DNA of 32,704 nucleotides from a virus. How positions within the stretch are numbered: the stretch's first letter is position 1; each line of letters starts with the position of its first letter. A model generated the notes under the pieces. That model saw nothing but the letters and a program-made list of their open reading frames with translations. It did not search any database and had not been told where the DNA came from. Location: UHGV virus genome UHGV-0173505. The stretch is one strand, 5' to 3'. A program made the translations under genes and the position numbers. Below, piece by piece: positions 1 through 26,598 of the stretch.

Positions 1-98
1 ATGCGTTTATTGAGGGGATGACGCTGCATTTTGTCACCGACCGTAAGCCGCTATCACGCGAGGAGATTTTGAGGATGGTTGAGAGGATTGCTGGGTAG
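1..98 (+). CDS. 3' end of a host gene truncated by the window start (C-terminus ...[13 protein letters not shown], stop TAG 96-98)
   Basis: Open frame 3 from the window edge to TAG at 96-98, lying outside the left att repeat; product not recognised. Confidence 0.3.
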
Positions 99-101
99 TA
101 G

Positions 102-128
102 ATAAATTTCAGGCAACAAAAAACCCAT
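102..128. repeat. attL core: 27-bp direct repeat ATAAATTTCAGGCAACAAAAAACCCAT
   Basis: Matches 32637-32663 at 26 of 27 positions (G/A at position 12); about 450 bp beyond the int stop; P2 core is also 27 bp. Confidence 0.65.
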
Positions 129-143
129 TTATGTAAATGGGTT
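116..143 (-). terminator. Rho-independent terminator for leftward transcripts (stem AACCCATTTA/TAAATGGGTT, T-tract on the minus strand)
   Basis: Perfect 10-bp inverted repeat with 2-nt loop at 122-143 preceded on the plus strand by an A-run; half of the stem is contributed by the att core. Confidence 0.5.
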
Positions 144-220
144 AATGGAAACAATAAGTTAGAGTAAAAACAATAAGTTGGGTTGGTGGTCAGTGGTGGT
201 GATTACGGGGTAATGCCAAC

Positions 221-243
221 CGCTGCCGCCACTTTGTCGCCAC
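221..243. repeat. 22-bp arm repeat CGCTGCCGCCACTTTGTCGCCA (candidate arm-type Int binding region, P' arm)
   Basis: Second copy at 32573-32594 with one mismatch; the two copies lie 92 bp and 41 bp inside the two core repeats, in the same orientation. Confidence 0.4.
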
Positions 244-248
244 TTGTT

Positions 249-518
249 TTACCTTAGACGCCATGGGCCCCTATCTTCAATCTGTTCGACTAACCCCTCC
301 TCTTCTAGTTCACGCAATAGTGCAACAACCCAATATTGTTGGTTCGAACTTGTGGCTTTCCGTTTTTCTCCCCAATCGAGGCCGCTTAGACGAAATACCT
401 CAGCTTGCTTAACGCCGTTGCCGTTTTTTTGGGCATCTGGGTGAGTTTTAAGTACGGATAAAGCCAATTCTTTGGCTCTGTTGCGCAATTCCGCTCCCTG
501 ATGCTGAAACTTATTCAT
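249..518 (-). CDS. Hypothetical 89-aa protein between attL and int (accessory gene; basic C-terminus, possible DNA-binding)
   Basis: Complete ORF with ATG at 518 and weak GGAG upstream; followed by the terminator at 116-143; no family recognised. Confidence 0.4.
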   Translation of the reverse strand: MNKFQHQGAELRNRAKELALSVLKTHPDAQKNGNGVKQAEVFRLSGLDWGEKRKATSSNQQYWVVALLRELEEEGLVEQIEDRGPWRLR

Positions 519-576: not shown

Positions 577-1608
577 TCAAAAACTTGCTATTGATGTTGG
601 TAGTGTTGCCAGCGGATTAAACCGTAATGCAGTTTCCAGGTGATCCGGTGCTAGATGTGCGTAACGCATAGTCATTTTTATGTCGTGATGTCCGAGGATT
701 TTTTGCAAAGCAAGGATATTTCCACCCGACATCATAAAATGCGCCGCAAACGTATGGCGCAGAACGTGTGTCAGTTGACCGCGAGGGAGCACGATAGACG
801 TTTTTTCCATCACGGATAAAAATTGAAAATAGCAGTCTGTGAAGAAATTGAACCCATCGAGCGCCATGATCTCTTCGTAAAGCTCTTTACTGATAGGGAT
901 GCTTCTGTTTTTCTTCCCCTTCGTTCTGACAAAGGTAATTCGGTATTTGGTCACCTGTGAGCGGGTAAGGTTTATTGCTTCTCGCCAGCGTGCGCCTGTG
1001 CTTAAGCATATCTTGACTACCAGTGCCAGAATTGGGTCCTGACGTTTGCAATCATCCAGCAGTTCAACAATCTGCTCATGGGTAAGCCATGCCATCTCTT
1101 TTTCTGCGATGGTGAATTTTCGCATGTTCTCCAGTGGGTTTGGATACGACCATTCGCCCAGGCGGGATAGTTCGCTAAAAACACTACTTAGATAGCTTTG
1201 CTCCAGGTTAATGGTGACCGGGCTGGCCCCTTTCTTCCATTTCTCGCTGAAGTAGATCTCACCTGTCAGTCGTTTATCTCGATAATGGGCAAACATTTTA
1301 GATGTGAGATCGGTTGCAAGGGGATTGCCCAGAGCGTCAACCATCAGCAGCAATTTGTCATAGACATGCTGCCCAGCAGTCAGAGATTTACCATGTAGTT
1401 TGAACCATAGCTCAACCACGTCTTTCAGGGTTCGACGATCTACTGATTCGCCCAGCCAGGGCTTTGCTTCGGTTTCTTCCATCGTGTGACGCTCAAAAGC
1501 CAGTGCTTCGCCTTTGGTGGCGAATTGTTTACGCACACGACGCCCACTACGTCCGGCGGGGTAACATTCGCAAAGCCATTTTCCTGTGGTGAGTTTTCGT
1601 ACTGCCAT
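577..1608 (-). CDS. int: Tyrosine integrase, P2/186 type
   Basis: C-terminal R...HxxR...Y catalytic motifs (LRHTFAAHF...MTMRYAHL); start moved to ATG at 1608 (MAVRKL...) with GGAGGG RBS; the track ORF extends further upstream to 1686. Confidence 0.9.
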   Translation of the reverse strand: MAVRKLTTGKWLCECYPAGRSGRRVRKQFATKGEALAFERHTMEETEAKPWLGESVDRRTLKDVVELWFKLHGKSLTAGQHVYDKLLLMVDALGNPLATDLTSKMFAHYRDKRLTGEIYFSEKWKKGASPVTINLEQSYLSSVFSELSRLGEWSYPNPLENMRKFTIAEKEMAWLTHEQIVELLDDCKRQDPILALVVKICLSTGARWREAINLTRSQVTKYRITFVRTKGKKNRSIPISKELYEEIMALDGFNFFTDCYFQFLSVMEKTSIVLPRGQLTHVLRHTFAAHFMMSGGNILALQKILGHHDIKMTMRYAHLAPDHLETALRFNPLATLPTSIASF

Positions 1609-1794
1609 AAAAAATGCCCTCCAATAGAGAGCATTTTTACTGTATGTATAACCAGTGTCAATGTATGAAATCTTGCGACCATACATCTCACTGAAGCCAT
1701 AATGAAGTTGGCTATTTTTTGCTATGTGAGTATGTGACTTTTGCGGTTAGCCTGCGGCTCATTGTTATATTAGGCGCAGATATAAAAGCAAAAA

Positions 1795-1986
1795 TTATCG
1801 CGAGTTTTTAGTACAGATTTTTTTTGATTTACTAATGGTTCCATCATTGCAAACGAACTTTCCATCGGAGGTACAGTGAGAGACACCTCCCTTTTTCCCA
1901 GAACAAGGATAATTTTTAGCATAGGTAGTTAGTGGGTTTAATAACAAAGAGCATGATAAAACCACAAAAAATACCTTACCAAGCAT
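1795..1986 (-). CDS. Small secreted cysteine-rich lysine-rich protein (63 aa; predicted signal peptide, cleavage after TYA)
   Basis: ATG at 1986 with GGGAG RBS 15 nt downstream of the cI stop; hydrophobic N-terminus then about 40 aa with 4 Cys and many Lys; AT-rich. Confidence 0.5.
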
Positions 1987-11576: not shown

Positions 11577-13342
11577 CAAAAAATCTCCACAATATTGCTG
11601 GTATTGGCGGACTCGCCCTGCAGCGGTTCGTTGAACAGTGCGTGCATTGTTGCCCAGGCCAGATCGGCGTGGCTGGCTTCTTCGCTGCGGCTGGCTTCAT
11701 AGGTCGGGCGGTTGCCGCTGGCGGTGGTTGCGCGACGGATTGCCATGAATGACTGCGCAATGTCGGTGTGTCCGGCGTCAAACTCCAGACGGCGGTGGCT
11801 GATAATGTCGTAGGCCTTGAGTACCAGGGCATTTTTAACATTGGGGTTATAGACAAACTCCCGGACGGCAGGAAAGAACGCTTTCACGTTCTCATAAACC
11901 CCGTGACCAACGCCGGTCGAGTCGATACCGATATACGTAACGTTGTACTGTTCGGTGAGTTTTTTGATGGCGTCAGCCTGGGCGCGGAAGTCCATCCCGC
12001 GCCACTGGTGACGCTCAAGAATGCGGAACTTACCACCCGGCACGGCTGGCGGAGCCACCACCACGCATCCGGCACTGTCGCCGTTCTGCGTACCTTTTGC
12101 CGGGTCATAACCGATCCACACTTCGCGCCAGCCAAACGGGCGCAGCGCCAGTGCATGAAAGTCGGTCCAGACTTCCCAGCTGTCCACCATGCACGCCTGC
12201 AGCTCGCTGAGCGGGAACACGGATGCGAGATCGTCCACGAACTCACACATCAGCAGGTTCTGGTATTCGTCCGGGCTGTACTCCATGCGCAACTGGTCGA
12301 GGTCGAACAGGTTACAGCCGCCGCGCACCGCATCTTCCACGGTGACTATCTGGCGGTATTGCCCGTCTGCGCACAGCAGGCCGGGGGCCAGATTGCTGTG
12401 GGACAGGTCGATGTCCACCTTGTCAGCTTTGTTGCGCCCACGGTTGAACAGCGCACCGGACCAGAACGGATAAGCACTGTGGGTCAGACTGGATGGTGTG
12501 GAAAAATAGGTCTGCCGCCATTTCTTGTGAATAGCCATACCGGAAGCCACTTTGCGTAGCTCCTGAAATTTCGGTATCCAGAAATATTCATCCAGATACA
12601 GGTTGCCGTGATAACTCTGGGCCGTGCGGGCATTGGTGCCGAGGAAGTAAAGCGTGGCCCCGTTAGGAAGCACCATCGGATCGCCTTTCAGCTCCACCTC
12701 CACTTCTTTGGCGAAGTCGATGATGTACTGCTTAAAGACGTGGGCCTGTGCCTTACTGGCGGAAAGGAAAATCTGGTTACGCCCGGTAAGCAGGGCGTCA
12801 ATCAGGGCTTCACGGGCAAAGTAAAAGGTCGCGCCGATCTGGCGTGACTTCAGCAGGTTGCGGATGCGGTTGGTTTTTCCGGCTTCCCACCAGTGGCGCT
12901 GGTAGTTGAACATGGAGGAATGGAAGATTTCTTCCAGCTTCTCAATCTGTTCATCGGTGAAAACATTCTTTTCCGGCTGACGGCGCGGGCCTTTGTTGCG
13001 GTTGGCGACGTTTGGGTTTAAGTCGGCTTCGTTGCCGCCATTGTTAAACTTGCCGATCCGCGCGTGGCGTTCCGACTGGCGCGCCAGCAGGTCAATCTCT
13101 TTGAAATCTTTCCCTTCTTTGTGCTCCTTCATAATGAGCTGGCAGTAGCGTGCGGCGGTGGTGAGCTGCATCTGATCCAGCGGCCCATAGTCACCCCACT
13201 TGTCGCGTTTTTTCCAGCTGTGAACGGTTGCAACTTTCTCGCCCAGCATTTCAGCAATGCGGGCTACGCGGTATCCCTGAAAGTACAGCAGCATGGCCTG
13301 CCGACGGGGATCGAGATCTGCGGGTGTCAGTGTGGTGTTCAT
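11576..13342 (-). CDS. P: Terminase large subunit (ATPase) P
   Basis: 588 aa, ATG 13342; divergent from O across the late promoter region. Confidence 0.85.
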   Translation of the reverse strand: MNTTLTPADLDPRRQAMLLYFQGYRVARIAEMLGEKVATVHSWKKRDKWGDYGPLDQMQLTTAARYCQLIMKEHKEGKDFKEIDLLARQSERHARIGKFNNGGNEADLNPNVANRNKGPRRQPEKNVFTDEQIEKLEEIFHSSMFNYQRHWWEAGKTNRIRNLLKSRQIGATFYFAREALIDALLTGRNQIFLSASKAQAHVFKQYIIDFAKEVEVELKGDPMVLPNGATLYFLGTNARTAQSYHGNLYLDEYFWIPKFQELRKVASGMAIHKKWRQTYFSTPSSLTHSAYPFWSGALFNRGRNKADKVDIDLSHSNLAPGLLCADGQYRQIVTVEDAVRGGCNLFDLDQLRMEYSPDEYQNLLMCEFVDDLASVFPLSELQACMVDSWEVWTDFHALALRPFGWREVWIGYDPAKGTQNGDSAGCVVVAPPAVPGGKFRILERHQWRGMDFRAQADAIKKLTEQYNVTYIGIDSTGVGHGVYENVKAFFPAVREFVYNPNVKNALVLKAYDIISHRRLEFDAGHTDIAQSFMAIRRATTASGNRPTYEASRSEEASHADLAWATMHALFNEPLQGESANTSNIVEIF

Positions 13343-25425: not shown

Positions 25426-26598
25426 ATGGCTCAGGATTACCACCACGGGGTGCGCGTTGTTGAAGTCAACGAAGGCACCCGATCCATTACCACGGTGAGC
25501 ACCGCCATCGTGGGTATGGTCTGCACGGGCGATGATGCCGATGCAAAAATATTTCCTCTTAATAAACCCGTGCTGATCACTGATGTGCTGACTGCCAGCG
25601 GTAAAGCGGGTGAGTCAGGCACGCTGGCTCGTTCGCTGGATGCCATCGCTGACCAGGCAAAACCCGTGACCGTTGTTGTGCGTGTGCCGCAGGGTGAAAC
25701 GGAAGAAGAAACCACGACCAATATCATCGGAGCAGTGACCGCTGAAGGTAAAAAAACAGGCATGAAAGCCCTGTTATCTGCCCAGTCACAGCTCGGCGTT
25801 AAACCGCGCATTCTCGGCGTGCCAGGTCACGACACGAAGGCGGTAGCTACTGAGTTGCTGAGCGTGGCGCAAAGCCTGCGTGGATTTGCTTACCTGTCAG
25901 CGTATGGTTGCAAGACAGTGCAGGAAGCAATCACTTACCGTGAAAACTTCAGTCAGCGTGAAGGAATGCTGATCTGGCCCGACTTTACTGGCTGGGACAC
26001 GGTGCTGAATGCCGAAGCAACGGCTTATGCCACCGCCCGTGCGCTTGGTCTGCGCGCCAAAATTGACGAGCAGACCGGATGGCACAAAAGCCTGTCCAAC
26101 GTGGGCGTTAACGGTGTCACCGGAATTTCTGCTGATGTGTTCTGGGATCTGCAGGACCCGGCAACCGATGCGGGACTGCTGAACCAGAACGACGTCACCA
26201 CCCTTATCCGCAAAGACGGTTTTCGCTTCTGGGGTTCCCGCTGCCTGAGTGATGACCCGCTCTTTGCCTTCGAAAACTACACCCGCACGGCGCAGGTGCT
26301 GACGGACACGATGGCAGAAGCGCACATGTGGGCGGTGGATAAACCGCTGAATCCGTCGCTGGCCCGCGACATTATCGAGGGTATCCGCGCCAAAATGCGC
26401 AGCCTGGTCAGTCAGGGCTATCTCATTGGTGGTGATTGCTGGCTGGATGAGTCGGTGAACGACAAAGACACGCTGAAAGCCGGAAAACTCACCATCGACT
26501 ACGACTACACGCCAGTGCCGCCACTTGAAAACCTGATGCTGCGTCAGCGCATCACCGATCAGTACCTGGTGAATTTCTCCAGCCAGGTCAGCGCGTAA
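25426..26598 (+). CDS. FI: Contractile tail sheath protein FI
   Basis: 390 aa, CAGGAGG RBS; position and size match P2 FI. Confidence 0.85.

Follow-up and report, generated by a model that had tools for sequence, protein, structure and literature searches.

The stretch of DNA analysed here, hereafter the window (32,704 nt; one strand of the virus genome UHGV-0173505), carries near-identical repeats close to both ends, each overlapping a hairpin, and a small open reading frame (ORF89, 89 aa) that lies between the left repeat and an integrase gene. The locus raises the question of where phage and host DNA were exchanged, whose transcripts the two hairpins belong to, and what the gene beside them does. 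The window is very probably a complete 186-type P2-like (Peduoviridae) prophage of the PhiECO1/PhiECO3 kind, inserted by a tyrosine integrase into the 3′ end of rybB, in the rcdA-ybjL interval; this estimate is a joint one for the whole explanation, including the place of exchange, the arm sites and ORF89 as an accessory gene. The features originally noted are all present at their stated positions, and their interpretation was right in large part but incomplete, chiefly as to the identity of the host hairpin. The window matches P2/186-like prophages of E. coli and Klebsiella, and the landmarks are as follows.

1–98, plus strand: 3′ end of the host gene rcdA (ybjK), with its TAG stop at 96–98; rcdA is annotated in all matching E. 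coli records
577–1617, minus strand: int, a tyrosine integrase with an N-terminal arm-binding domain and the C-terminus ...ATLPTSIASF* (Pfam Int_N, 2.9e-32; Phage_integrase, 4.4e-22)
1633–1661, minus strand: promoter-like site just upstream of int (TTGACA, 17-nt spacer, AAAAAT), from a consensus scan only
2697–2918: Cox/Apl-type excisionase (phrog_575, 6e-31)
32354–32572, plus strand: ogr, the late-gene activator and final phage gene ahead of attR (Pfam Ogr_Delta, 5e-22)

Among the PHROGs, Int matched the phrog_1 integrase family (1.9e-75), and the further family genes in the window include those for a 186-type CI repressor and a CII-like regulator. Both the architecture and the integration site are already known in the literature. 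Archer et al. (2011; PMC3032704) name "rybB ncRNA" as the place where P2-like prophages of E. coli W, B and Crooks are inserted, and Nilsson et al. (2011; PMC3448106) catalogue PhiECO1, PhiECO2, PhiECO3 and PhiSEN1 with one common site. The starts that the latter publish for PhiECO1 (916812) and PhiECO3 (908870) both coincide with base 1 of the 14-mer AACAAAAAACCCAT. The sole undescribed part is the small conserved gene between int and att; the searched sections of PMC3448106 and PMC3032704 hold no discussion of an 89-aa ORF, nor of a core that equals the last 14 nt of RybB.

The right-hand host hairpin could be assigned to a gene. An Rfam scan of the window returned a single match, to RybB (RF00110), at 32650–32704 on the minus strand, with 62.6 bits vs. 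a gathering score of 40.

32650–32704, minus strand: 3′ two-thirds of rybB (model positions 25–79); the first 24 nt, with the 5′ seed region, and the sigma-E promoter fall outside the window
32659–32695, minus strand: rybB terminator stem-loop; the last 14 nt of the gene (32650–32663) are the att core

Empty sites and a lysogen both hold the full 79-nt rybB, at 105.3 bits, and the Enterobacter copy reaches 103.5 bits. RybB has its 3′ end on the first base of AACAAAAAACCCAT, and the att core is the last 14 nt of the gene; on the minus strand these read AUGGGUUUUUUGUU and comprise the final five stem bases of the terminator and the U-tract. The right hairpin folds at -22 to -23 kcal/mol (z ~-3) and is present in empty sites, in agreement with the original prediction that it is host-derived and that its T-tract lies in the core. 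That prediction had also called it a host terminator, which it is, although not an anonymous one, since it belongs to the sRNA gene rybB (RF00110). The hairpin lies ~80–110 nt past the stop codon of ybjL, on the same strand, and may also stop ybjL read-through; its description as a ybjL terminator was dropped as the primary identity after the Rfam assignment to rybB.

The 27-bp direct repeats that had been proposed as attL and attR are identical at 26 of 27 positions, the lone mismatch being G113 vs. A32648, and the estimated chance expectation of such a pair in 32.7 kb is ~2e-6.

102–128: attL copy of the 27-bp repeat, host-type over 102–114 with G at 113, and identical to the empty attB of strain JKHS006
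115–128: minimal common core AACAAAAAACCCAT in attL, on whose first base the published PhiECO1 and PhiECO3 begin
32637–32663: attR copy of the 27-bp repeat, phage-type over 32637–32649 with A at 32648, as in the attP of phage KP12

Of 5426 complete E. coli genomes, 4227 contain, without interruption, the sequence made by joining the flanks through one copy (1–128 + 32664–32704, 169 bp), and strain JKHS006 has it at 100% identity. In these empty sites a single core copy joins both flanks, and the junction falls at the core and not at the 22-bp repeat considered below. A junction at the latter had been named as refuting the prediction, so the outcome favours the core and supports the two 27-bp copies as attL and attR. 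A chance origin of the repeats is ruled out by the expectation together with this empty-site test. The phage-form order ogr-attP-int occurs in Klebsiella phage KP12 and in the viral contig L108.

The part of the repeat that serves as the core is shorter than had been supposed. The 27-bp repeat is present where it had been predicted, but its length as a core is peculiar to this host lineage, and the other examined lysogens share 14 bp. The 14-mer AACAAAAAACCCAT is the only stretch common to the attL and attR of lysogen CFS3313 and to all examined attB and attP variants, which carry the following bases to its left.

attB of K-12: GATAAGTTTTAGAT
attB of JKHS006: GATAAATTTCAGGC
attP of KP12: CATAAATTTCAGAC
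attL of the CFS3313 lysogen: GATAAATTTTAGAT
attR of the CFS3313 lysogen: CTTAAATTTCAGGC

The attL of HS is of the CFS3313 host type and that of CFT073 of the JKHS006 host type; in several strains, the left part of attL is always host-like and the left part of attR always phage-like. Since the attL of the window has the host-type G and its attR the phage-type A, the exchange would have taken place to the right of 113, inside 115–128. The same G/A mismatch shows that the 13 additional bases of the 27-bp repeat were not exchanged; the repeat reaches 27 bp because the attB of this host lineage also resembles attP over these 13 further bases. The repeats had been described as ending at the base of the hairpins, which is not the case, since their last five nucleotides (CCCAT) are the first five of both stems. 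The minus-strand T-tract lies entirely within the 27-bp repeat.

The left hairpin differs from that of rybB in its stem.

122–143, minus strand: phage hairpin with a 9-bp stem (122–130 paired with 135–143) and a 4-nt loop; its U-tract lies at 115–121

In a terminator scan it was picked out as terminator-like on the minus strand, its tail being TTTTTTGTTGCC, and its stem, with three G-C pairs and then UUUUUUGUUG, qualifies by sequence as that of a rho-independent terminator. It folds at -9.4 to -9.6 kcal/mol, is A/T-rich and is barely more stable than shuffled sequence (z ~-1.7). The view that this hairpin is supplied by the phage is upheld by KP12, whose attP contains it. A full minus-strand hairpin and U-tract, made up of the phage stem (AACCCATTT/AAATGGGTT) and the common 14-mer, lies in attP downstream of int. 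It had been suggested that the phage rebuilds a terminator at attL; instead, hairpin and T-tract are already complete in attP and stay with int after integration. We infer that the phage hairpin and U-tract form the intrinsic terminator of the int-ORF89 transcript. A common stem polymorphism (A or G on the minus strand) leaves an A-U or a G.U pair in minus-strand RNA and an A.C mismatch on the plus strand, a pattern that would fit an RNA-level role on the int strand. Conservation of the phage hairpin could equally reflect a core-type Int binding site beside the crossover.

Taken together, these features suggest how the phage might enter rybB while both RNAs keep a terminator. The attP and attB share the 14 bp of AACAAAAAACCCAT, with the remainder of the stem being that of RybB in attB and a shorter phage stem in attP, such that strand exchange within the 14 bp would yield two working terminators. 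The rybB gene is left intact at attR, and the terminator of the int transcript would stay intact at attL, by a logic like that of relatives that enter tRNA or tmRNA genes without inactivating them. If so, the locus offers a clean example of an attP terminator whose stem end and U-tract are also those of the host sRNA terminator that the phage targets, with both RNAs keeping their 3′ ends.

A 22-bp repeat (221–242 and 32573–32594) is found on the two arms with 21 of 22 positions identical, for an estimated chance expectation of ~2e-3 in 32.7 kb. The proposal that these copies are arm-type Int sites gained support, as each resolves into two tandem 11-mers, three of the four being exact to the published consensus of 186-type integrases.

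224–234 and 235–245, plus strand: predicted P′ arm-type Int sites, the tandem 11-mers TGCCGCCACTT and TGTCGCCACTT
32576–32586 and 32587–32597, plus strand: predicted P arm-type Int sites, TGCCGCCATTT and TGTCGCCATCG, both conserved in KP12 attP
149–161 and 168–180, plus strand: two IHF-like sites of the P′ arm, AAACAATAAGTTA/G, each with one mismatch to WATCAANNNNTTR
32615–32627, minus strand: IHF-like site of the P arm, with one mismatch to WATCAANNNNTTR

The consensus, tgccGCCActt, is a direct repeat that PMC3448106 assigns to the arm-binding sites of 186-type integrases, and the one deviating copy, at 32587–32597, departs from it in the final three bases. The pattern TGYCGCCAYTT has five matches in the window vs. 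0.11 expected, and three of them are at the att arms. The reconstructed attP of 400 bp contains three IHF-like sites with one mismatch each, vs. 0.26 expected from their window-wide density; those of the P′ arm are kept across genera, and some lineages have exact matches to WATCAANNNNTTR. With tandem 11-mers on each arm and IHF-like sites between arms and core, the N-terminal domain of Int could link arm to core in the manner of lambda, P2 and 186, the binding of Int and of IHF being predicted from these sites.

Two other accounts of the att region were weighed against this explanation. Cox and Apl bind repeated sites in the att arms of P2 and 186, and by analogy the 22-bp repeats might bind the Cox/Apl excisionase, or some other factor, in place of Int. 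That is extremely improbable in our judgment, given that the 11-mers form tandem pairs on both arms and that three of four match the 186-type Int arm consensus exactly (PMC3448106). The second account, a version of the original prediction, holds that the terminator under the core belongs to a protein-coding gene of the host, that the phage evolved a replacement stem for the host at attL, and that ORF89 is a recent and unusual cargo gene. The position of the hairpin downstream of ybjL on the same strand, where it may stop read-through, speaks for such a scheme, as does the lack of ORF89 in the nearest sequenced phages. Nonetheless we consider it very unlikely to be right, because the hairpin is the terminator of RybB, because attP already contains the phage stem, which would end the phage's own minus-strand transcript, and because no minus-strand host gene needs a stem at attL. 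Its third element conflicts with the conservation of ORF89 together with int and the arm sites in genomes where int DNA is only 74–81% identical. We therefore retain insertion into the end of rybB, with exchange inside the 14-bp core, as the preferred reading of the att region.

The gene between int and att is real and under purifying selection.

249–518, minus strand: ORF89, 89 aa, with a winged-helix model; identical to WP_001032044.1

The reading frame is intact, with GGAG 8 nt before its ATG. Compared with orthologues from other genera, pS is 0.66–0.86 (saturated) and pN 0.15–0.20, for a dN/dS of at most ~0.14, and the differences from Escherichia sp. E1V33 are all synonymous. The protein is identical in HS (PhiECO1) and CFT073 (PhiECO3). 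An AlphaFold2 model (pLDDT 90.7) has the topology H-H-H-E-E, a three-helix bundle with a C-terminal beta-hairpin wing, and the best Foldseek matches in PDB and BFVD were generic wHTH domains (TtgV/IclR, Zalpha, MarR, H1), all with E > 0.03. The likeness to Zalpha was dropped, as the position aligned to the Zalpha asparagine is variable in the family and the Asn-to-Tyr spacing is unlike that of Zalpha. Nothing significant was found in Pfam, PHROGs or NCBIfam, no family matched among the anti-phage defence models of PADLOC, a profile search of PDB sequences gave no match, and no similarity to the Xis, Cox, Apl or AlpA families was seen in Pfam, PHROG, NCBIfam or PDB. A tblastn search of 50,697 phage records likewise gave no match, and no sequenced phage isolate carries ORF89. 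Longer proteins with ORF89-like domains had fusion partners that offered no clue, and a literature search for WP_001032044 found no paper mentioning the accession. The homology and structure search that had been proposed for this protein yielded a winged-helix model and more than 200 homologues, and the curated family libraries gave no match. ORF89 is probably an accessory DNA-binding protein of the winged-helix type, as judged from the model.

The original prediction was correct in placing a complete 89-aa ORF between the core and int, but the gene is not an unusual one-off cargo, since several genera keep it together with int and the arm sites. The whole module, in which the int end and a spacer are followed by ORF89, the arm 11-mers, the IHF-like sites, the hairpin and the core, recurs in Escherichia sp., Klebsiella, Enterobacter, Franconibacter, Huaxiibacter and Phytobacter. 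In Enterobacter cloacae it is found in decayed remnants at the rybB site, beside an int fragment and an arsRBC operon, and ORF89 stays intact in Enterobacter after decay of the remaining prophage. The family is compact (112 representatives at 50% identity among 1.84 billion proteins), and members that are 40–57% identical occur across Proteobacteria, Clostridia, Bacteroidota, Planctomycetes and Actinobacteria. Outside the enterics, no constant neighbour of ORF89 was found and neighbours are lineage-specific; GmrSD-type, EcoRI-type, UDG-like or nuclease-like genes are only a few bases away from several homologues, and the homologues of Firmicutes follow a TetR gene next to guaA.

A consensus scan found no terminator-like site between int and ORF89. 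ORF89 is most likely the last gene of an int transcript that ends at the att hairpin, and would as such be expressed in the lysogen; co-transcription of the two genes is judged from consensus scans only. ORF89 is not needed for use of this att site, because most prophages at the same site lack it. The P′ arm was found in 1104 E. coli genomes, 209 of which carry ORF89 and ~81% of which do not. Phage-form attP junctions were seen for relatives lacking ORF89 (KP12, L108 and tandem prophages). A strict pattern search of metagenome contigs found no attP junction linked to ORF89, and a composite attP query against E. coli genomes matched only tandem prophages without the gene. Prophages with ORF89 occur with three different host attB haplotypes, which is the only sign that the ORF89-bearing variant may have been mobile.

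The relatives without ORF89 differ from the window by a discrete segment, as seen in an alignment with KP12, 813R9 and 4LV2017.

247–599: 353-bp segment absent from all three, bounded by a 3-bp TTG microhomology; it holds ORF89, its upstream spacer and an alternative int stop
203–246, minus strand: non-coding in the window; in relatives without ORF89 it codes for the last 13 Int residues and the stop (SGDKVAAAVGITP*), as judged from the same alignment and the KP12 int translation

In KP12, 813R9 and 4LV2017, the int frame continues through the arm 11-mers and ends in SGDKVAAAVGITP*, and in the other P′-arm genomes sampled the match ends at window position 246, inside an annotated int. The identity of int DNA to the window is 95–96% for the E. 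coli and Klebsiella variants without ORF89, 97–98% for ORF89-bearing E. coli and Escherichia sp., and 74–81% for the ORF89-bearing forms of other genera. Where the int stop could be read in other genera, int ends a few to about a dozen codons past ...RFNPLAT, ahead of ORF89, and the arm sequence is non-coding yet conserved. The simplest reading is that the absence of ORF89 in relatives arose by a secondary 353-bp deletion that fused int to the arm sites. Absence of the ORF from close relatives had been named as evidence against the prediction; the gene is indeed absent from most of them, but in a manner that looks like such a deletion. The int frame of most relatives would then cross the Int arm sites only because of a deletion.

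Other histories and roles of ORF89 deserve weighing alongside these. The segment could have been inserted into an ancestral int 3′ end in the lineage of the window, with no deletion in the relatives: the bases at 203–246 are identical to the tail-coding end of int in relatives without ORF89, and the E. coli allele of ORF89 and its upstream spacer are far more diverged from those of other genera than int is (71–73% amino-acid identity to the closest other genera for ORF89 vs. 92–93% for int), which suggests exchange of a cassette. An insertion nevertheless seems distinctly unlikely, as int stops ahead of ORF89 in the other genera with the arm sequence non-coding yet conserved, the variants without ORF89 are nested within ORF89-bearing diversity, and a loss of 353 bp between TTG repeats would be simpler. 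As to its role, ORF89 might be a directionality or architectural factor that binds the adjacent arm region and modulates Int. It is a small winged-helix protein whose position directly between int and the arm sites is kept across genera, and winged-helix directionality factors are a known class (PMC11963761). Yet the phage already has the Cox/Apl-type excisionase at 2697–2918, to whose or any other excisionase family ORF89 bears no similarity; the gene is missing from ~81% of the prophages that use this site, as well as from the phage isolates KP12 and 4LV2017; and its homologues elsewhere have no P2-like integrase within ~6 kb (tblastn) and stand beside varying neighbours that include restriction-type genes. 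A role in recombination is, on this evidence, highly improbable. A compact family that nevertheless spans distant phyla, nuclease-like neighbours and an intact frame in the decayed Enterobacter prophage point to a further idea, that ORF89 represents a winged-helix family, as yet uncharacterised, that is tightly conserved, has spread horizontally and has its own function in lysogens. We regard this as unlikely; if true, ORF89 could control a defence or exclusion activity or regulate host genes. For the locus at hand, we keep to an accessory winged-helix gene whose absence from relatives would be due to deletion.

The chief value of the analysis is correct annotation. The prophage ends can be placed with base precision, the exchange lying within 115–128 and 32650–32663, and the flanking host hairpin should be annotated as rybB, a gene that the lysogen retains whole. 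Experimental work might prove worthwhile for the ORF89 family alone.

Among known systems, the window has the same integration site as PhiECO1 (E. coli HS), PhiECO2 (ATCC 8739), PhiECO3 (CFT073), Rybb*W, Rybb*B and Rybb*Cr. Int is 99% identical to that of PhiECO1 and PhiECO3, the 89-aa protein is identical (HS, CFT073), and the 186-type switch (CI, Cox/Apl, CII) is as in the PhiECO prophages, whereas the cargo between int and cI varies between strains. The phages KP12 and 4LV2017 of Klebsiella and vB_EcoM-813R9 of Escherichia have int DNA that is 95% identical and the same P′ arm, hairpin, 11-mers and core; unlike the window, they are without the 353-bp ORF89 segment, and their int ends in SGDKVAAAVGITP*. 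An sRNA gene also serves as the site for P2-like prophages at cyaR (Table 2 of PMC3032704) and at the Salmonella sdsR/ryeB locus (PMC3333887), although sRNA, core and integrase specificity all differ from those described here. Finally, in common with 186, Fels-2/SopEPhi and HP1, as treated in PMC3448106, the window has a heterobivalent tyrosine integrase, arm sites to either side of the core that are tgccGCCActt-type direct repeats, and a core that covers the 3′ end of a structured-RNA gene and leaves that gene intact. The target of those phages is a tRNA or tmRNA gene, whereas here it is the gene of an Hfq-dependent sRNA, and the cores of tRNA targets are much longer (50–110 nt is cited for some) than the 14 bp of stem end and U-tract that are shared with rybB.

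In the E. coli strain Nissle 1917 (CP007799.1; locus L116, 401-460), the rcdA-rybB site carries two copies of the 27-bp core in tandem, separated by TTA alone. These three bases are the first three of the phage P' arm, and the prophage itself is absent between the two cores. The tandem cores could have been left behind when a prophage was lost, or else they are an artefact of assembly. In the same record, ybjL is annotated as partial and three places match the 169-bp attB query, the join of the two flanks through one core.

A different arrangement was found in the E. coli chromosomes CFSAN061772 and FDAARGOS_1248 (matches H111 and H112), where an ogr-attP-int junction lies within the chromosome, which indicates that two prophages of the window's type are integrated in tandem at rybB. 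The tandem prophages of both strains lack ORF89, the gene for the 89-aa winged-helix protein. The circular 42-kb record pZ1323HEC0475-2 (NZ_CP148327.1; locus L006), deposited as a plasmid, contains, in order, P2-like tail genes, ogr, attR and the host genes ybjL, ybjM, grxA, ybjC, nfsA and rimK. This record could be a misassembly, or it could reflect aberrant excision of a prophage together with flanking host DNA.

The same rybB site is occupied by a decayed element in Enterobacter cloacae (L007, 3049-5411) and at a second Enterobacter locus, L019. It begins with an attR-like core, followed by a gene of either the GIY-YIG type or a 558-aa ATPase. Next come a short fragment of int, a homologue of ORF89, a P' arm and core that are both degenerate, and finally arsRBC ahead of rcdA; the ORF89 homologue is the sole intact gene of the phage module. 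Several homologues of ORF89 (among P0121-P0127, P0131 and P0132) are longer proteins: they either have, in 184 to 535 aa, two stretches that each match the ORF89 profile, or combine the ORF89-like part with other regions. One longer homologue carries a GreA/GreB C-terminal domain (Pfam, 2.5e-09).

Further matches to the arm-site pattern TGYCGCCAYTT, and an inverted repeat at attP, are as follows:

12513-12523, plus strand: exact arm-pattern match in the prophage interior, far from att
26516-26526, plus strand: exact arm-pattern match, likewise interior and far from att
32635-32641 with 127-133: perfect 7-bp inverted repeat, CATAAAT and ATTTATG, flanking the core in the reconstructed attP, halves 19 bp apart

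Only 0.11 pattern matches are expected across the whole window, and the two interior ones are probably coincidences within coding sequence. The inverted repeat has a phage-specific outer half, while its inner half is part of the phage hairpin; the two halves may be core-type Int sites.

One further ORF lies between int and cI:

1795-1986, minus strand: 63-aa ORF

Its product has a signal-peptide-like N-terminus and several cysteines, and matches phrog_6000, a family of unknown function (4.6e-34). At this position the ORF89-less relatives KP12 and 813R9, as well as locus L017, have a 558-aa ATPase and a partner gene instead, and CFT073 and CFS3313 have yet other genes. Because its cargo differs between strains, the int-cI interval looks like a variable cargo slot.
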